From the NCBI RefSeq assembly GCF_041886205.1, contig NZ_CP169029.1: a stretch of DNA of 64,000 nt; one strand, written 5' to 3'. Below, one piece after another: positions 6,469 through 36,442 of this stretch. The stretch's first letter is position 1; every line of letters starts with the position of its first letter. The stretch is from Escherichia coli. GTDB taxonomy: Bacteria > Pseudomonadota > Gammaproteobacteria > Enterobacterales > Enterobacteriaceae. The notes beneath the pieces are model-generated. The model was not told where the DNA came from. It was given only the letters and a program-made list of their open reading frames with translations, and ran no database searches. Both the position numbers and the translations under genes were made by a program.

Positions 6469-8429
<1,961 letters not shown>

Positions 8430-28974: not shown

Positions 28975-30012
28975 TTAACGCTTATCCGCCACCAGTTTGA
29001 GCGCGTGTTCCAGCACATTAATGTCTGCACCCGCTTTATGGGCATTTTCACTTAAATAACGCCGCCACTGCCGCGCGCCAGGAATACCCTGGAACAAGCC
29101 CAACATATGCCGGGTAATATGACCGAGATACGTCCCCTGGCTGAGTTCACGCTCAATGTACGGATACATGGCGCGCACTACCGCCACCGGATCGGCATCG
29201 ATATCCGAGGAACCAAAGATCTCCCGGTCTACCGCCGCCAGAATACCCGGATTCTGATACGCCTCGCGCCCGACCATCACGCCATCCATATGTTGCAGGT
29301 GTGCTTTGGCCTCTTCCAGCGACTTGATACCACCGTTAATCGACATTGTCAGATGCGGAAAGTCACGCTTCAGTTGATACACACGCGGATAATCGAGCGG
29401 CGGGATCTCACGGTTTTCTTTCGGACTTAACCCCGAAAGCCAGGCTTTACGTGCATGGATGATGAACATCTCACACTCGCCTTTGCCGGAAACGGTGTTG
29501 ATGAAATCGCAGAGAAATTCATAGCTGTCCTGGTCGTCGATGCCAATACGCGTTTTCACCGTCACCGGAATCGACACCACATCGCGCATCGCTTTCACGC
29601 AGTCGGCAACCAGCTGCGCATTACCCATCAGACACGCACCAAACATGCCGTTCTGCACCCGGTCAGACGGGCAGCCGACATTCAGGTTGATCTCATCATA
29701 TCCACGCGCTTCTGCCAGCTTCGCACACTGCGCCAGCGCCGCCGGATCGCTACCGCCGAGTTGCAACGCTACCGGATGTTCTTCTTCACTATACGCCAGG
29801 TAATCACCTTTACCGTGAATAATCGCCCCTGTAGTTACCATTTCAGTATACAGCAACGTATTGCGGGAAAGCAGACGCAAGAAATAGCGGCAATGTCTGT
29901 CCGTCCAGTCGAGCATAGGAGCAATGCTAAACCGAGAATTCCAGTAAACACCAGTTTTTTCAGGCATCACGCTGGTTTGATTAATTTTTTGTGTTTCATG
30001 ATTATCGTGCAT
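28975..30012 (-). CDS. dusA: tRNA-dihydrouridine synthase A; its 5' end is probably supplied by the adjacent prophage
   Basis: 345-aa ORF. Dus TIM-barrel motifs ([22 protein letters not shown]). The intact ORF directly abuts a divergent integrase. Confidence 0.93.
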
Positions 30013-30100
30013 TTTTGAACATTTCAGGCTATTTTTCTCGCGTTAGGTTCCCGCACAGGTTCCCACGTTTTATGGGAACCCGAAATAACGAGGTCGTGTA

Positions 30101-31198
30101 ATGGCGTACTATAACATAGAGAAACGACTAAAATCCGATGGCACACCACGCTATCGCTGTAATGTGATTATCAAAGAAAAAGGTGTTATCACTTACAGGG
30201 AAAGCAAAACATTCCCTAAACATGCTCATGCCAAAACATGGGGCACACAGAAAGTGATGGAATTAGATCTATATGGCATTCCATCATCAAATGCAGTTGA
30301 CGGACTTACAGTCCGTGACTTACTACACAAATATTTAAATGACCCAAATGCCGGAGGTAAAGCAGGCCGTACTAAAAGATATGTGCTAGAACTGCTTATG
30401 GATAGTGACATCTCCGCGATCAAACTATCTGAACTGACAGAAAATGACGTAATTGAACATTGCAGGCTAAGAAACAACGCTGGCGCAGGTCCAGCAACAG
30501 TCAGCCACGATGTTAGTTATCTTGGTAGTGTTCTGGATGCGGCCAAACCTGTATACGGAATTAATTACACATCAAACCCGGCGAAAAGTGCTCGTCCATA
30601 TCTACTTAAACTTGGTTTGATTGGTAAATCAAACCGTCGTAATCGTAGACCAGCATCTGATGAACTGGACATGCTCATTGAAGGCCTTCAACAACGATCT
30701 ACTCATAAATGCTCAAAAATTCCGTTCGTTGATATCCTCAAATTTTCTGTGTGGTCCTGTATGCGAATCGGAGAAGTATGCCGGTTACGATGGGAAGATC
30801 TCGACCAGGAACAAAAATCTATACTCGTAAGAGACAGGAAAGATCCACGCAAAAAGGAAGGCAACCACATGAAAGTAGCCTTGCTTGGGGAAGCCTGGGA
30901 TATCGTCCAACGACAGCCCCAAAAATCGGAATTCATTTTTCCATATAACAGCACTTCTGTTACTGCGGGATTTCAGAGAGTAAGAAGCAAATTAGGTATT
31001 AAGGATCTGCGATACCATGATTTGCGTAGAGAAGGGGCAAGTCGCTTATTTGAGGCTGGTTTTAGTATTGAGGAAGTCGCCCAGGTTACAGGGCATCGTT
31101 CATTAAACGTGCTATGGCAGGTATATACCGAACTGTATCCGAAATCTTTACATAATCGTTTTGAAGAGCTCCAAAGGAGCAGAAATAAGATCCCTTGA
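30101..31198 (+). CDS. int: Tyrosine integrase, dusA-associated type
   Basis: 365 aa. C-terminal catalytic region HDLRREGASRLF...VTGHRSLNVLWQVYTELY (R..HxxR..H..Y). Divergent from dusA and 88 bp away. Confidence 0.9.
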   Translation: MAYYNIEKRLKSDGTPRYRCNVIIKEKGVITYRESKTFPKHAHAKTWGTQKVMELDLYGIPSSNAVDGLTVRDLLHKYLNDPNAGGKAGRTKRYVLELLMDSDISAIKLSELTENDVIEHCRLRNNAGAGPATVSHDVSYLGSVLDAAKPVYGINYTSNPAKSARPYLLKLGLIGKSNRRNRRPASDELDMLIEGLQQRSTHKCSKIPFVDILKFSVWSCMRIGEVCRLRWEDLDQEQKSILVRDRKDPRKKEGNHMKVALLGEAWDIVQRQPQKSEFIFPYNSTSVTAGFQRVRSKLGIKDLRYHDLRREGASRLFEAGFSIEEVAQVTGHRSLNVLWQVYTELYPKSLHNRFEELQRSRNKIP

Positions 31199-31246
31199 CA
31201 CTGTTTATCCATACAGTTAAAAATAATACTGTATACAAACACAGTA
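31195..31246 (+). promoter_or_regulatory. Promoter with two tandem LexA boxes upstream of the DinI-like gene
   Basis: TTGACA at 31195-31200. CTGTTTATCCATACAG at 31201-31216 and TACTGTATACAAACACAGTA at 31227-31246 both fit CTGT-N8-ACAG exactly. Confidence 0.8.
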
Positions 31247-31259
31247 TAGAGGGACTTTT

Positions 31260-31508
31260 ATGCGTATTGAAATCTGCATAGCCAAAGAAAAAATGACTAA
31301 AATGCCAACCGGTGCTGTGGATGCGTTAAAGGAAGAATTAACCCGACGCATCAGTAAGCGTTATGACGATGTAGAGGTGATCGTAAAAGCCACCAGCAAC
31401 GATGGGCTTTCAGTTACACCTACTGCAGATAAAGATTCAGCTAAAACTTTTGTGCAGGAAACTCTGAAAGATACCTGGGAGTCTGCTGACGAGTGGTTTG
31501 TTCACTAA
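31260..31508 (+). CDS. DinI-family (DinI/MsgA-like) damage-inducible protein
   Basis: 82 aa. [10 protein letters not shown]...LKEELTRRI...[16 protein letters not shown] matches the DinI family pattern (MRIEVTIAK...ILQETWESADDWF). Confidence 0.85.
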
Positions 31509-31511
31509 TTA

Positions 31512-31575
31512 GCACTATCGGAAGTTCACCAGCCAACCGCAGCACGTTTTTGCATACAACGTGCCTGCGGTTTTT
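31512..31575 (+). terminator. DinI-gene terminator hairpin; copy 1 of a ~63-bp direct repeat
   Basis: GCACTATCGGAAGTTCACCAGCCAACCGCAGCACGTTTTTGCATACAACGTGCCTGCGGTTTTT: stem ACCGCAGCACGT/ACGTGCCTGCGGT followed by T5. Repeated at 34181-34243. Confidence 0.75.
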
Positions 31576-31731
31576 CGAGACTATTCTGACCGTCATACTT
31601 ACACATCAACTTAGCGCCCATCCAGAGAAATTATCTTTTTTGCATTCCGAAGATTCAAAGAGTTAGCCTAATTTTCCAGATAGTTTTCTCGACAAATCTG
31701 AGGTATTTTGGTTATCGATATAGTGCTTTGG

Positions 31732-32788
31732 GGCTTTGTTGAATAAATCAGATTTCGGGTAAGTCTCCCCCGTAGCGGGTTGTGTTTTCAGGCAATACGC
31801 ACGCTTTCAGGCATACCTGCTTTCGTCATTTTGTTCAGCGCTCGTACCAGGGCCATAGCCTCTGCAACCTGACCATCGTAGTCACGCAGCGTCAGTGAAC
31901 CCCCGAACAGCTGTTTTACCCGGTACATCGCCGTTTCCGCTATCGAGCGACGGTTGTAATCTGTTGTCCATTTCCACCGCGCATTACTCCCGGTCATTCG
32001 CTGATTAGCCACTGCACGGTTACGGTCTGCATATTCACCGGGCCAGTAACCCGCACCTTTTCGGGGAGGGATAAGCGCGCTGATTTTCTTACGCCGCAGT
32101 TCATCGTGACATAGCCGGGTATCGTAAGCGCCATCGGCGGCGGCTGACCTGATTTTCCGGTGGGTTTGCCGGATTAACCCGGGGAAGGCCTCTGAGTCCG
32201 TAACGTTGTTCAGCGACAGGTCAGCGCAGATGATTTCATGTGTTTTACTGTCAACGGCGAGATGCAGCTTACGCCAGATACGGCGGCGTTCCTGGCCATG
32301 CTTTTTGACTTTCCACTCGCCTTCACCGAAGACCTTCAGCCCGGTGGAATCAATTACCAGGTGTGCGATTTCACCCCGGGTGGGCGTTTTGAAACTGACA
32401 TTAACCGACTTTGCCCGCCTGCTGACACAGCTGTAATCCGGGCAGCGTAGCGGAACGTTCATCAGAGAAAAAATGGAATCAATAAAGCCCTGCGCAGCGC
32501 GCAGGGTCAGCCTGAATACGCGTTTAATGACCAGCACAGTCGTGATGGCAAGGTCAGAATAGCGCTGAGGTCTGCCTCGTGAAGAAGGTGTTGCTGACTC
32601 ATACCAGGCCTGAATAGCTTCATCATCCAGCCAGAAAGTTATGGAGCCACGGTTGATGAGGGCTTTATTGTAGGTGGGCCAGTTGGTGATTTTGAACTTT
32701 TGCTTTGCCACGGAACGGTCTGCGTTGTCGGGAAGATACGTGATCTGATCCTTCAACTCAGCAAAAGTTCGATTTATTCAACAAAGCC
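31732..32788 (-). mobile_element. IS903-group (IS5 family) insertion sequence, 1057 bp
   Basis: Perfect 18-bp terminal inverted repeats GGCTTTGTTGAATAAATC at both ends. 9-bp target-site duplication GTGCTTTGG at 31723-31731 and 32789-32797. A single transposase ORF lies inside. Confidence 0.95.
31788..32756 (-). CDS. IS903-type DDE transposase
   Basis: ...AKQKFKITNWPTYNKALINRGSITFWLDD...DSTGLKVFGEGEWKVKKHG...AETAMYRVKQLFGG matches the IS903/IS102 transposase as remembered. The family start (307 aa) would be the GTG at 32711. Confidence 0.93.
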   Translation of the reverse strand: MKDQITYLPDNADRSVAKQKFKITNWPTYNKALINRGSITFWLDDEAIQAWYESATPSSRGRPQRYSDLAITTVLVIKRVFRLTLRAAQGFIDSIFSLMNVPLRCPDYSCVSRRAKSVNVSFKTPTRGEIAHLVIDSTGLKVFGEGEWKVKKHGQERRRIWRKLHLAVDSKTHEIICADLSLNNVTDSEAFPGLIRQTHRKIRSAAADGAYDTRLCHDELRRKKISALIPPRKGAGYWPGEYADRNRAVANQRMTGSNARWKWTTDYNRRSIAETAMYRVKQLFGGSLTLRDYDGQVAEAMALVRALNKMTKAGMPESVRIA

Positions 32789-32843
32789 GTGCTTTGGCTG
32801 AGGAACAGCATTAAATTCAACCATTTTATTCATAGGGATTAAA

Positions 32844-33848
32844 ATGCAAGATACAGACGTTTACGTATACATAGGCGATGTTCACCGCTCTGGTCATCAC
32901 GACATCACCAAAGCGATTAAAGAAAGAAAAACTAACCATGGTTTACAAAAAAATGTTCTTTTTTGCGTCGCTACCTATGGCGGTGATCCCAGCGCAGGAT
33001 ATAGAATTGGCCGCGCTTTGCAACACAACTATGAACACATCACCGTTCTAGTTGTTGGCCCTTGCAAAAGTGCTGGAACCTTGATGGCTGTCGCCGCTCA
33101 TAAGCTCGTGATTGGTGATATGGGTGAGCTTGGTCCTCTAGACATCCAACTTAAGAAAAATGATGAGATCGGCGAATTGAGCTCGGGCCTTGTTATCGCA
33201 ACGGCGATTGATGAAATAAAAGAGTGCGCTATTTCGACCTTTAGATCATACGTACTTGATATAAAGTACAGAAACCAAATTAGCACGAAGATGTCTGCAG
33301 ATATTGCTGCTAAGCTTACTGAAGCAATCATATCGCCGATGGCCTCACAGATAGACCCCATCAAACTCGGGGAGCATCAACGAGCAATGAACATAGCGCT
33401 TTCCTATGGGGAGCGTTTGAATAGTCACTCGAAAAATCTTAAGGAAAGCTCCTTAGGCAAGTTGATCGCTGGATATCCAGCCCATGGTTTTGTGATAGAC
33501 CGTAAAGAGGCGAGGGAACTATTCAACCATGTTGAGAGTCCTACAGACTTTGCAGCCAACCTGTACGAAGTTCTTGGTGAGATGATTTCGTCAGGCGAAA
33601 TCTCTATCTTCGACAAACCGGTGATTAAAGATTTAACTCCTAAAAAACAATATGAAACAACTAACGCAGAGGAAGATTCCCATGACAACAGCAGAATTCA
33701 GGAAGGAGATGAAATCTCTGACCAAAATTCAGGAAGAGCAGAACCGCCAAGGGATGAACCTGTCCAGGGAAGCGATGGAAAACATGCGGAAATTGAAGAA
33801 GAGGCTGGAACCTTACCAGCAGAGCAACCAGATGAAGGCACTCAGTGA
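32844..33848 (+). CDS. Orphan ClpP/SppA/SDH-fold serine peptidase with an acidic low-complexity C-terminal tail
   Basis: 334 aa. Contains VVGPCKSAGTLMAVAAHKLVIGDMGELGPLDIQ (Ser nucleophile in a G-x-x-S-A-G context typical of Clp-fold peptidases) and later AHGFVIDRKEARELF. The last ~70 aa are D/E/Q/P/G-rich. It has its own RBS (AGGGA) and a downstream terminator. Confidence 0.65.
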   Translation: MQDTDVYVYIGDVHRSGHHDITKAIKERKTNHGLQKNVLFCVATYGGDPSAGYRIGRALQHNYEHITVLVVGPCKSAGTLMAVAAHKLVIGDMGELGPLDIQLKKNDEIGELSSGLVIATAIDEIKECAISTFRSYVLDIKYRNQISTKMSADIAAKLTEAIISPMASQIDPIKLGEHQRAMNIALSYGERLNSHSKNLKESSLGKLIAGYPAHGFVIDRKEARELFNHVESPTDFAANLYEVLGEMISSGEISIFDKPVIKDLTPKKQYETTNAEEDSHDNSRIQEGDEISDQNSGRAEPPRDEPVQGSDGKHAEIEEEAGTLPAEQPDEGTQ

Positions 33849-33864
33849 ATATTGTAGTTTCTGA
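33682..33864 (+). CDS. Possible overlapping (+1 frame) small helical protein; uncertain
   Basis: The alternative frame is open over the protease tail. MTTAEFRKEMKSLTKIQEEQNRQGMNLSREAMENMRKLKKRLEPYQQSNQMKALSEYCSF is preceded by AGGAAG 6 nt upstream of its ATG and ends 3 nt before the terminator. The GA-rich sequence could keep both frames open by chance. Confidence 0.25.
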   Translation: MTTAEFRKEMKSLTKIQEEQNRQGMNLSREAMENMRKLKKRLEPYQQSNQMKALSEYCSF

Positions 33865-33866
33865 TT

Positions 33867-33900
33867 GAGGACCTCGGCTACTACGCCGGGGTCTCTTTTT
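33867..33900 (+). terminator. Rho-independent terminator of the protease cassette
   Basis: GAGGACCTCGGC-TACTAC-GCCGGGGTCTC imperfect hairpin followed by TTTTT. Confidence 0.65.
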
Positions 33901-34180
33901 ACATCACTGGGCAGTCATCAAACTCCGCATTCCTAGCATCGTGATGATGTACGTGATTGCTCCGAATATTGAGTGTGAGTAATTGTAGCCACCACCATCA
34001 TCTGGCAGTGCTTCCGTTCTCCAGATTTATCAGGTGGGACTAAGGATGAGTACGATATCGCTTAATCCTGAAACTCCATTTCAGACAGGGACCCTATTAC
34101 AGACCGAAAGACCACAGATAAGTAGTTTGTTCATAAATTAATGCGTAGAATCAATAACGGCTGGAAATCATTCAATACTC

Positions 34181-34243
34181 GCACTATCGAAAGTTCGCCA
34201 GCCAGCCGCAGCACGTTCTTGCATACGACGTGGCTGCGGCTTC
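34181..34243 (+). repeat. Copy 2 of the DinI-terminator repeat (no T-run)
   Basis: GCACTATCGAAAGTTCGCCAGCCAGCCGCAGCACGTTCTTGCATACGACGTGGCTGCGGCTT differs from copy 1 (31512-31575) at 7 positions over the 62 bp compared. One pair of substitutions is compensatory in the stem (A..T to G..C). Confidence 0.8.
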
Positions 34244-34280
34244 CAACATTAGACAAATAACTCTTTAAATTGCTTTTAAA

Positions 34281-34844
34281 TTATTTCGTTTGAATGCCAG
34301 TAACAGGAAATCGTTTATATAGGGTTGATAGCCCAACGTTATAGATACGTGCAACATAACGCCGTGATTTCCCTGCCGCTATGAGCGCTCCCATCTGTTG
34401 CCACTGCTCGTCGCTAAACTTCGGTCTACGCCCACCAATCCGGCCTTTGGATCTGGCAATAGCCAAACCAGCTAAAGTTCGCTCGCTATTCAAATCAGAT
34501 TCATACTGCGCAGCAGAAAGAATATTACGGAAATTATAGCGACCACTTGCTGTTTTCAGGTCTACACCATCTGTAATACTCCGAAAATTAACGCCTTTTT
34601 CGTGCAGATTTTGAAACATCAATAGCGCATGTAGCACATTTCTCCCTATCCGATCTAGCTTCCAGACAATCAACTCATCTCCACTTTTCATCACCGAAAT
34701 TAATTCCTTTAACACAGGGCGATTAGCTGTTCTGCCACTGGCATATTCTTCATAAATTCGCTCACAGCCAGCTGACTCAAGTGCAAGACGTTGCAACTCT
34801 GTATCCTGATGATTTGTTGATACACGAACATACCCGTAAATCAT
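34281..34844 (-). CDS. Serine-recombinase DNA invertase (Gin/Pin/Hin family)
   Basis: 187 aa. MIYGYVRVSTNHQDTELQ (catalytic Ser), ...DRIGRN..., and a C-terminal HTH GKSRRYVARIYNVGLSTLYKR. Adjacent to the invertible tail-fibre segment. Confidence 0.92.
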   Translation of the reverse strand: MIYGYVRVSTNHQDTELQRLALESAGCERIYEEYASGRTANRPVLKELISVMKSGDELIVWKLDRIGRNVLHALLMFQNLHEKGVNFRSITDGVDLKTASGRYNFRNILSAAQYESDLNSERTLAGLAIARSKGRIGGRRPKFSDEQWQQMGALIAAGKSRRYVARIYNVGLSTLYKRFPVTGIQTK

Positions 34845-34903
34845 GAGTGCTTCTCCTGTTGTAAAAACAGGAGAAGAGGCGAAATATCACCTGATTCAGA
34901 AAA

Positions 34904-34929
34904 ATATTTGAAAGGTTGGTTTGGGAGAA
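34904..34929. promoter_or_regulatory. Left inversion crossover site (gix/hix-like)
   Basis: ATATTTGAAAGGTTGGTTTGGGAGAA. Its 15 bp TTGGTTTGGGAGAAG (34916-34930) are an exact inverted copy of 36813-36827. Confidence 0.75.
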
Positions 34930-35415
34930 GGCTCAGCGTTACCCGTTGGTGTGCCTGTTCCGTGGCCTTCAGCCACACCACCAACAGGCTGGCTGAAATG
35001 CAACGGTGCACCTTTTTCTGCCGAAGAGTACCCAAAACTGGCAAAGGCTTACCCAAAGTTAAAATTACCGGATTTGCGCGGTGAGTTTATTCGCGGGTGG
35101 GATGATGGGCGAGGTGTTGATTCCGCGAGACTGCTGCTTTCAAGTCAGGCAGCATCTATCCTTGAACATAACCATGAAATGCATGGATGGACAGGGAACC
35201 CACTCATGGCTAGAGATGTTGGTGAATTAGGTACATCATCCGTATTTGCGGTGCAGTTGAGCATTGGCGATGGCGGGTTATTGTATTCGTGGAAGGATGG
35301 GAGTGGAACAACAAATGACAGTAAACGAATGGATAGAACAAATCATGTCAGTTCCGGCGCCGGTGATGGTAGCCCGCGAAACATTGCATTTAACTACATT
35401 GTGAGGGCTGCATAA
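34921..35415 (+). CDS. Silent alternative tail-fibre C-terminal cassette (Sv'-like, promoterless in this orientation)
   Basis: Begins inside the crossover site with no independent ATG or RBS. LGEGSALPVGVPVPWPSATPPTGWLKCNGAPFSAEEYPKLAKAYP... is the classic phage tail-fibre receptor-binding C-terminus. It would be fused to the constant part after inversion. Confidence 0.8.
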   Translation: MGEGSALPVGVPVPWPSATPPTGWLKCNGAPFSAEEYPKLAKAYPKLKLPDLRGEFIRGWDDGRGVDSARLLLSSQAASILEHNHEMHGWTGNPLMARDVGELGTSSVFAVQLSIGDGGLLYSWKDGSGTTNDSKRMDRTNHVSSGAGDGSPRNIAFNYIVRAA

Positions 35416-36018
35416 ATGGAACAGGCTATTTTGGGAAAAGACGGTTACGCTTTAAATGATGGGGAAATCATCGTACATAACTATGATGGCGAAACGCGGG
35501 AATATATTTCTACATCAACTGAATATCTCGCTGTCGGAGTCGGTATCCCGGCATGTTCCTGTCTGGATGCACCAGGTACACATAAAGCTGGTTATGCAAT
35601 CTGTCGCTCTGTAGATTTAAATTCATGGGAATATGTGCCAGACCATCGCGGTGAAACGGTCTATAGCACCAAAACAGGAGAATCAAAAGAAATCACCGCT
35701 CCGGGTGATTACCCTGAAAATACAACCACTATCGCCCCATTAACGCCATACGATAAATGGGATGGTGAGAAATGGGTGACCGATACTGAGGCACAGCATA
35801 GCGCCGCAGTAGACGCGGCAGAAGCACAGCGCCAGTCACTGATTGATGCTGCAATGGCTTCCATTAGTCTGATTCAACTGAAATTGCAGGCCGGACGTAA
35901 ACTGACGCAGGCAGAAACAACCAGACTTAACGCTGTGCTGGATTACATTGACGCGGTGACGGCAACAGATACCAGCACCGCGCCGGATGTCATCTGGCCT
36001 GAACTGCCGGAGGCGTAG
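35416..36018 (+). CDS. Tail-fibre assembly chaperone (Tfa/U'-like) of the silent cassette
   Basis: 200 aa. The C-terminal ...LIQLKLQAGRKLTQAETTRLNAVLDYIDAVTATDTSTAPDVIWPELPE is typical of the Tfa family. Confidence 0.85.
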   Translation: MEQAILGKDGYALNDGEIIVHNYDGETREYISTSTEYLAVGVGIPACSCLDAPGTHKAGYAICRSVDLNSWEYVPDHRGETVYSTKTGESKEITAPGDYPENTTTIAPLTPYDKWDGEKWVTDTEAQHSAAVDAAEAQRQSLIDAAMASISLIQLKLQAGRKLTQAETTRLNAVLDYIDAVTATDTSTAPDVIWPELPEA

Positions 36019-36442
36019 GCCATTCAATATCTGGCGCACTGGAGGTATCAACCAGCTCCAGTGCATCCAGATAATCCAGCCACAAATTATATTGCGCCAG
36101 TTCCTCACCTTTCAGACGACCAATAGCGGCTTTACCGGGCCATTGCTTACTGTTCATGTATTCGTTGGCCTGGTTAATTAGTAGCTGTCTTTCTGATTCA
36201 GTAATTTCAATAAGCTCTTCATGCGTGGGTGGAGGAATATCTGCCCACGCAGGCAGCCCATCATCTCCGGCAATACGGATTTTTCCTTGTGGCGGTTCAG
36301 CCATAAACTCACTGATAATATTTTGATTTACTTCCTTAGCGTCTGATAAATCCCATCCCTCTGATTTATATTTATCAATCATATCCACAGGGAAAAAAGC
36401 ATTATGCCTTGCGCTATAAACATATTCGTTCATATAAATCAC
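35990..36442 (-). CDS. Tail-fibre assembly chaperone (Tfa/U-like) of the expressed cassette
   Basis: 150 aa. ...LKGEELAQYNLWLDYLDALELVDTSSAPDIEWPTPP is the Tfa C-terminal motif. Convergent 29-bp overlap with the other tfa gene. Confidence 0.85.
   Translation of the reverse strand: MIYMNEYVYSARHNAFFPVDMIDKYKSEGWDLSDAKEVNQNIISEFMAEPPQGKIRIAGDDGLPAWADIPPPTHEELIEITESERQLLINQANEYMNSKQWPGKAAIGRLKGEELAQYNLWLDYLDALELVDTSSAPDIEWPTPPAVQAR

Follow-up and report, generated by a model that had tools for sequence, protein, structure and literature searches.

We analysed a 64-kb window of Escherichia coli DNA (contig NZ_CP169029.1; "the window" is this whole stretch), in which a prophage carries a protease gene between two copies of a short sequence that first occurs just after a dinI-like gene. 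These repeats are probably two alleles of one conserved non-coding element located 3' of dinI: a block from a donor phage would have been spliced in, and later crossovers would have taken place within the element. The element has three parts, a spacer of 40 bp, a box of 24 nt and a bulged hairpin with a 14-bp stem, and it lies 3' of an SOS-regulated dinI-like gene at the ends of Escherichia prophages. We read the locus as an ordinary scar left by recombination between phages at a hot spot for cargo, and see in it neither a new mechanism nor a cassette system. The features that carry this reading are as follows.

31260..31508, plus strand: DinI-like gene, donor allele "A" (Pfam DinI, 68.5 bits)
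31512..31575, plus strand: repeat copy 1, with 24-nt box (31512-31535), stem-loop (31535-31572) and T run (31571-31575), lacking the 40-bp spacer
33899..34101, minus strand: remnant of an S24/LexA-type repressor gene with which the donor block ends on the right
34102..34116, no strand: illegitimate junction between the donor block and a truncated resident dinI, from a three-way comparison
34117..34180, plus strand: 3' stump, ~25 nt long, of a second dinI (34117-34140), then the 40-bp spacer (34141-34180)
34155..34195, no strand: interval of a homologous crossover, donor-type to the left and resident-type to the right within copy 2
34181..34242, plus strand: repeat copy 2, the resident element, with box (34181-34204) and stem-loop (34204-34241), lacking a U tract

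Repeat copies, empty site and joins

The initial annotation had described direct repeats of about 63 bp with seven mismatches over 62 bp, and this similarity exceeds chance. Positions 31512-31573 and 34181-34242 align without gaps over 55 identities in 62 (BLAST E = 4e-20 for 301 nt compared with 301 nt), the window holds exactly two occurrences of a 24-nt repeat-derived anchor, which none of 100 shuffles contains, and the covariance model of the hairpin scores copy 1 at 66.6 bits and copy 2 at 69.2 bits. The core of the repeat thus stands as described but its extent does not, as the spacer and the 3' end of dinI extend copy 2: past a 40-bp indel, upstream homology resumes between 34121-34140 and the end of dinI at 31492-31511 (17 of 20 positions). 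In relatives, the standard layout after the dinI-like gene is a stop codon, the 40-bp spacer, the 24-nt box (GCACTATCGRAAGTTNNCCAGCCA) and the hairpin. The spacer found at 34141-34180 follows dinI in nearly all of them, and copy 1 is unusual in having lost it; a dinI-to-box gap of 3 nt is seen in only two dinI-like open reading frames (ORFs), those of the window and of GXU-23-25-310, versus 42-43 nt in about 50. Since spacer and dinI 3' end precede its box, copy 2 is the stump of a second dinI module and not a bare terminator. Nor are IS903, the protease gene and an untranslated spacer all that lies between the copies, as had been stated; a leader, the terminator of the protease gene, the repressor stump and the dinI 3' stump are also present.

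The site is also found without cargo. A cargo-less query of 1,632 bp, in which the integrase 3' end, dinI and copy 1 were joined to the sequence after copy 2 and pin, is covered in one place by 63 complete E. coli genomes, all with the same dusA prophage and with the layout int-dinI-spacer-hairpin-pin around a single element. The 30 listed matches span 1,668-1,672 bp, the surplus 40 bp being the spacer that the query omitted. Inspection at dusA of enterotoxigenic E. coli (ETEC) H10407 and of wlxctx60 gave the order dusA-int-dinI-element-pin-tail fibres, and F404 has the equal empty arrangement in a related prophage at prfC. The single-copy site that the initial annotation had proposed to look for is hence present both in the dusA prophage of the 63 genomes and in a prfC relative, and related prophages do not always carry the same content, as cargo-less and differently loaded sites both exist.

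From 34155 rightwards, through pin, the window is identical to H10407, wlxctx60 and F404, while the dinI allele of these three genomes differs from that of the window at several sites and the window allele matches GXU-23-25-310. Because the examined dinI alleles differ while the downstream sequence is identical, these three genomes have unoccupied sites and are not the products of excision between two copies; no excision product is seen among the 30 genomes listed of the 63. The identity from 34155 on also shows that copy 2 is the resident element and that copy 1 came with the donor block. With copy 2 resident and copy 1 imported together with a dinI gene, the copies are not the equivalent cassette flanks they had been taken for. 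The longest perfect match between them is 12 bp, so the window copies are predicted to be poor substrates for excision; they are scars and anchors for exchange between phages, not an excision device.

The imported block holds its own dinI, a spacer-less hairpin element, the leader, the protease gene with its terminator and the repressor stump. Up to 34101 the stump is 97.4% identical to avian pathogenic E. coli (APEC) O78, where RefSeq annotates a frameshifted partial "S24 family peptidase". Homology to APEC O78 stops by 34101 and homology to dinI begins at about 34117. Because the donor side shows no homology at 34102-34116, the join located there is illegitimate, and it cut off the second dinI gene. 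A different kind of join is found a few tens of bases further on. GXU-23-25-310, also with a prophage at dusA, has the same block and both copies without IS903, followed after copy 2 by lambda-like tail genes; it equals the window over 32789-34195, and divergence starts inside the hairpin. As the window equals GXU-23-25-310 up to 34195 and the empty-site genomes from 34155, a single homologous crossover is placed within the 41 bp common to all of them, 34155-34195.

Another exchange is recorded in the APEC O78 lineage (prfC, 20 genomes), where dinI, spacer, box, hairpin, leader, protease gene and stump are joined to a truncated pin and a second copy is absent. Its hairpin is a hybrid, with the resident 5' arm AGCCGCAG, the donor 3' arm CCTGCGGTT and the donor leader, the outcome of a crossover within the stem-loop, by which a G-U pair was formed. 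The proposal that homologous flanks permit cargo exchange is therefore borne out by the crossovers at 34155-34195 and in the APEC O78 hairpin, but not in its assumption of equivalent cassette flanks. In the same lineage (locus L007, 7285-8965), the C-terminus of pin is lost at the junction with the cargo block, where an IS2 adjoins, and this prophage has probably lost tail-fibre inversion.

These joins suggest a course of events. The dusA prophage, which normally reads int-dinI-element-pin, would have received the donor block, whose right end became attached, by an illegitimate join, to a resident-type dinI some 25 nt ahead of the stop codon, so that stump, spacer and hairpin together became copy 2. 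Later homologous crossovers in the element would have swapped the downstream partner, which is pin with Mu-like tail fibres here and the lambda-like genes in GXU-23-25-310, and the entry of IS903B into the leader would be the latest event. Exactly this arrangement would be expected if two prophages had lain in tandem at dusA (a double lysogen) and one deletion had occurred.

Cargo exchanged at the element

A box-pattern scan of viral contigs gave 120 loci, from which the role of the element in other prophages can be read. Gapped pairwise alignments, which replaced an ungapped homology mapping made misleading by 1-nt indels, reach no further than the 3' end of the hairpin in 92% of 3,028 pairs, and on the left side most stop within 60 nt of the box. 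Over the 600 bp after the hairpin, 119 elements fall into 38 unrelated clusters, which encode GmrSD, NleG, NleC, an NEL E3 ligase, an acyltransferase, an alpha/beta hydrolase or a methyltransferase; at other inspected loci the element is followed by a restriction-modification pair, a diguanylate cyclase, effectors of the type III secretion system, or directly by pin and tail-fibre genes. Further loci with two copies on the same strand were found with the hairpin covariance model, and different genes do lie between the copies, as the initial annotation had envisaged.

Window, L001, L044 and L075: protease; second copy made of dinI stump, spacer, box and hairpin
L020, L028, L047 and L054: 257-aa GIY-YIG protein; second copy made of the hairpin only, directly before pin in L028
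L019, L033, L055, L062 and L084: 222-aa S-adenosylmethionine (SAM) methyltransferase; second copy made of a partial box and hairpin
L108: 419-aa ORF with no Pfam family; second copy made of a partial hairpin

The site is thus a general hot spot for morons (extra genes of temperate phages) with a conserved recombination anchor. The element works as an anchor because it is among the few stretches common to otherwise unrelated phages, and no recognition by an enzyme is required. Phage recombinases can cross over on about 30 bp and tolerate 12% divergence (PMC3945230), and a phage Rad52-type or a RecA pathway may have been used here. The window offers a base-level example of how an accessory gene moves between unrelated temperate phages, and a short element behind an SOS gene is reused as the left-hand crossover of a hot spot that receives restriction systems, nucleases, type III effectors and a protease. 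The element can also serve as a practical landmark for cargo genes at the ends of Escherichia prophages.

Hairpin, conserved core and the alternatives

In both copies a stem of 14 bp, interrupted by a single bulged base, closes a 9-nt loop, with folding energies of -22.3 kcal/mol for copy 1 and -23.9 kcal/mol for copy 2 (z = -3.2 and -2.3). The paired substitution reported initially, from AACCGCAG...CTGCGGTT in copy 1 to AGCCGCAG...CTGCGGCT in copy 2, is present as noted. Across the family, a covariance-model alignment was used in place of a first MAFFT alignment, which mis-registered sequences without the bulge. Among 55 distinct hairpins, 80.7% of pair cells are standard pairs, versus 30-43% with slid partners, and double-sided changes amount to 22 cells (5 pairs) versus 7.2 in column shuffles, none of 500 shuffles reaching 22. 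The stem therefore seems to be maintained through compensatory changes, with support that is modest since the alignment was fitted to the model, the sequences are related and some mis-registration remains. At the pair singled out in the window, 26 distinct sequences have A-U, 19 have G-U and 4 have G-C; its A-U to G-C change is allelic variation passing through a wobble pair, and crossovers between alleles make G-U hybrids directly.

It had also been argued that both copies were functional terminators, and for copy 2 this is not supported. A stable G+C-rich stem-loop lies 27 nt past the dinI stop codon in copy 1, while in copy 2 it is preceded by no more than a gene stump. Copy 1 is followed by TTTTT, while copy 2 is followed by CTTCCAAC and lacks a U run, as does the identical resident hairpin in the empty-site genomes examined; the pair change is allelic and G-U forms are common. 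In the whole family, a run of at least four T after the stem is found in only 15 of the 55 distinct variants. A simple terminator scan called neither copy because of the 9-nt loop and the bulged stem. Copy 1 looks like a real intrinsic terminator and copy 2 is more likely a stabilising stem-loop than a terminator. The hairpin is most likely a 3'-end structure of the dinI transcript.

Other roles for the hairpin and its surroundings were considered and rejected. A minus-strand ORF crosses it in both copies (34131-34256, 41 aa, in copy 2; 31441-31596, 51 aa, in copy 1) and is not coding, because its frame and start vary with hairpin length and the substitutions are compensatory in RNA terms. In RefSeq, a minus-strand gene of 35 aa that crosses the hairpin, for instance in L001 at 7866-7973, is named "capsid protein" (in other places "nucleocapsid protein"); this has the look of a spurious gene call copied into many genomes, and small "capsid protein" ORFs lying across the element should be regarded as probable artefacts of annotation. 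Read-through of dinI in frame into the spacer was dismissed, as spacer substitutions show no codon pattern. The box holds GCTGGTGA on the minus strand, which matches 7 of the 8 Chi bases, and a Chi site was also discarded; two variable box positions break GCTGGTGA in many variants, including copy 2.

The best-conserved part of the element is not the hairpin. A second scan, anchored on dinI instead of the element, was used to measure diversity by segment, and 59 of 62 distinct dinI-like genes carry the element. Over 53 distinct loci, the 24 nt before the box (window 34157-34180, AACGGCTGGAAATCATTCAATACTC; the same segment in L002-L007, L132 and L133) are about seven-fold less diverse than dinI synonymous sites. 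Nucleotide diversity (pi) takes the following values by segment.

dinI, third positions of codons: 0.097
spacer, 3'-terminal 24 nt: 0.013 (resampling P = 2e-5)
box: 0.062
hairpin arms: 0.14-0.23
sequence downstream of the hairpin: 0.60

These figures speak for a functional RNA gene as the alternative. The highly conserved, single-stranded spacer core (AACGGCTGGAAATCATTCAATACTC and box) and the covarying hairpin, a unit of ~100 nt, would then form an SOS-induced small RNA (sRNA) or mRNA-stability element derived from the 3' untranslated region of dinI, the copies being kept by selection and the bracketing of cargo being a by-product. Besides the low diversity of the core and the covariation, the near-constant presence of the element with dinI-like genes speaks for it, as do the two LexA boxes that drive dinI and the persistence of the element with no dinI-length ORF before it in about 45 of the 106 box-anchored elements with enough upstream sequence. 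However, no Rfam family corresponds to the element (a scan of 30000-36000 at E <= 1 returned only noise, namely a microRNA and CssrB at 22 bits, where 76 bits is the cut-off), and a match to a published sequence was not found either; the element is absent from the supplement of the Pas sRNA preprint. The known prophage sRNAs AgvB and AsxR of enterohaemorrhagic E. coli were set aside, as they sit at the PR' moron site and not here. Orphan copies have no evident promoter, the U tail that an Hfq-type sRNA should have is missing from 40 of the 55 hairpin variants, and copy 1 of the window lacks the core yet follows an intact dinI. Among 185,579 species representatives, only Escherichia and Shigella have the exact 27-nt core, so recent spread could partly explain its conservation. 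Taken together, we find an RNA gene of this kind doubtful, though not far-fetched; were it real, an RNA module kept by many Escherichia phages would double as a portable boundary for the exchange of defence and virulence cargo.

Two further origins can be weighed against the joins themselves. A hairpin duplicated in place, by slippage or in tandem, with cargo landing between the copies later, would give direct repeats in the same orientation 2.7 kb apart, as observed. However, the copies are different alleles, copy 2 being 100% identical to the empty-site genomes examined and copy 1 matching GXU-23-25-310; 7 of 62 bases and a 40-bp indel set them apart; and the dinI stump before copy 2 is not created by duplicating a hairpin. 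The allele pattern alone already refutes such a duplication, which we hold to be next to impossible. A dedicated cassette system, in which the hairpins act as attC-like sites where a site-specific recombinase inserts or excises the bracketed genes, is highly improbable for other reasons. It would fit the four cargo types bracketed by hairpin copies, the GIY-YIG second copy that is a hairpin alone joined at the stem base, the conserved bulged base in the stem and the nearby presence of both a tyrosine integrase and a Pin invertase, and integron cassettes are likewise variable genes separated by imperfect hairpins with a bulged base. Unlike the fixed core-site crossover of integrons, though, the junctions fall at no fewer than five places: in spacer and box (34155-34195), in the 3' arm (APEC O78), at the stem base (GIY-YIG loci), in dinI (34102-34116) and in pin (APEC O78). 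Two-copy prophages have different integrases and occur with or without pin; no dedicated recombinase was seen and no integron integrase is adjacent, the integrase of the window scoring 24.1 bits with the integron-integrase model TIGR02249 (cut-off 265); no RYYYAAC...GTTRRRY core sites flank the hairpin; and the listed empty-site genomes provide no excision products.

Some observations nevertheless weigh against the interpretation that we favour, that of two alleles brought together by an imported block. In the collections searched, no donor phage was found with an intact repressor beside the protease gene, and a search by protein in 50,697 phage records returned only a 59%-identical protease from a Klebsiella phage and a 38% match from a Burkholderia phage; where the block came from and in which order the events took place is consequently only what we infer. 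The APEC O78 and window forms share the right end of the block within about 15 bp while their partners differ, which needs either the descent of one form by deletion from the other or a defined block end. A U tract is missing from most variants of the hairpin, so that its RNA role stays tentative. Finally, the conservation of the core exceeds what a passive linker needs, although recent spread and frequent recombination could also lower its diversity.

Related systems, cargo gene and neighbouring genes

The moron concept in temperate phages reportedly goes back to Juhala et al. 2000. As in morons, the cargo is an extra gene with its own terminator (the hairpin at 33869-33894, then CTTTTT) between two conserved phage genes, it is absent at this position from close relatives (the 63 genomes without cargo), and the site hosts many different accessory genes across phages. 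As differences, no convincing promoter of its own was found and IS903 now splits its leader, it arrived in a larger block with a second dinI, and its GC content does not differ from that of the flanks (morons are reviewed in "The moron comes of age", PMC3594210). A second parallel is the mosaic joint that temperate phages and prophages produce by relaxed homologous recombination (De Paepe et al. 2014, PMC3945230; Martinsohn et al. 2008, cited there). The window resembles these mosaics in the exchange over short, partly diverged shared segments, in the steps of identity beside the crossover and in the joining of one block to unrelated partners; it differs in that a specific non-coding element of about 130 bp is reused and that one of its two joins is illegitimate.

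Resemblance to a further system is in concept only: repeated regulatory stem-loops flank variable genes and act as crossover points for shuffling. These are the PeSL "mobile regulatory cassettes" of T4-type phages, for which Arbiol, Comeau and Krisch 2010 reportedly detected circular intermediates. They combine promoter and stem-loop and belong to lytic phages with circles, whereas the present element is a 3' hairpin of temperate phages with no circles or excision products known. For E. coli O157, Tobe et al. 2006 are said to have described loci with exchangeable effectors where lambdoid prophages end. They occupy the same prophage region, from the tail-fibre genes to the end, and NleG, NleC, NEL and EspM/EspW occur in some of the loci considered here; the dinI 3' element was apparently not singled out there as the left-hand anchor, and the cargo of the window is not an effector. 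The remaining features of the locus are listed below.

28975-30012, minus strand: dusA, host gene and prophage attachment site
30101..31198, plus strand: dusA-type tyrosine integrase (365-aa ORF), prophage left end
31201-31216 and 31229-31244, plus strand: two LexA-box matches upstream of dinI
31576..31731, plus strand: leader, resuming at 32798-32843 past the IS; first ~125 nt in common with the region upstream of GIY-YIG genes
31732-32788, minus strand: IS903B of the IS5 family (31723..32797 with duplications), with the 9-bp target duplication GTGCTTTGG on both sides
32844..33848, plus strand: ClpP-fold serine protease-like cargo gene, 334 aa
33869..33904, plus strand: terminator-like hairpin of the protease gene, a stem-loop (33869-33894) and T run; 10-bp stem with 7 G-C pairs, then CTTTTTACAT
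34281..34844, minus strand: Pin-type serine DNA invertase (187-aa ORF), right-hand neighbour of the site

The protease stays below family cut-offs (27 bits with Pfam SDH_protease, cut-off 31.3; 35.9 bits with NCBIfam, cut-off 250), and RefSeq names its homologue "SDH family Clp fold serine proteinase". PADLOC gave no match for it, and a defence function was dropped on that account. Its last ~70 residues are acidic and of low complexity, and the gene of its closest phage homologue (59%) lies beside the immunity region of the Klebsiella phage.

The leader directly follows the first hairpin, and the part common to the protease and GIY-YIG types covers ~125 nt (31576 to ~31700), similarity being lost 50-80 nt upstream of the two start codons. 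Leader-related sequence is found in 464 E. coli genomes at a match of ~75-80%; in the two contexts inspected it lies upstream of "LEM-3-like GIY-YIG" genes, and a hairpin copy follows the 3' end of the gene. It contains a well-conserved 45-nt core (ATTCAAAGRGTTAGCCTMATTTTCC...) located 5' of two unrelated cargo genes (in the window and in L020, L028, L129 and L130). A scan for sigma-70-like sites on the plus strand returned none in 31576-32843, the stretch that holds the conserved leader, now interrupted by IS903. The insertion has the inverted ends (31732-31764 and 32756-32788), transposase (322-aa ORF) and 9-bp duplication of the IS5 family and shares 99.7% identity with annotated IS903B. 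It entered secondarily, as a simple insertion, 55 bp before the start of the protease gene, and L001 and L007 have the uninterrupted site. By parting the protease gene from its leader, IS903B may have silenced the gene or provided a new drive for it.

At its left end the prophage is integrated in dusA, with a chromosomal flank 99% identical to E. coli, and the gene adjoining dusA is annotated "tyrosine-type recombinase/integrase" in L001, L132 and L133. The two LexA-box matches are the only CTGT-N8-ACAG sites in the window and lie directly 5' of the DinI-like gene, so a leaky hairpin would put downstream cargo under SOS induction; LexA control has been reported for phage dinI homologues (PMC3121763). 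On the right, pin is annotated "recombinase family protein" in L004, L132 and L133. Beyond it lie opposed ORFs for tail fibre and tail-fibre assembly (34921-36018, plus strand; 35990-36442, minus strand), and pin with this region (34281-36442) forms the usual invertible host-range segment, which is present in the other orientation or in another version in H10407, wlxctx60 and F404.

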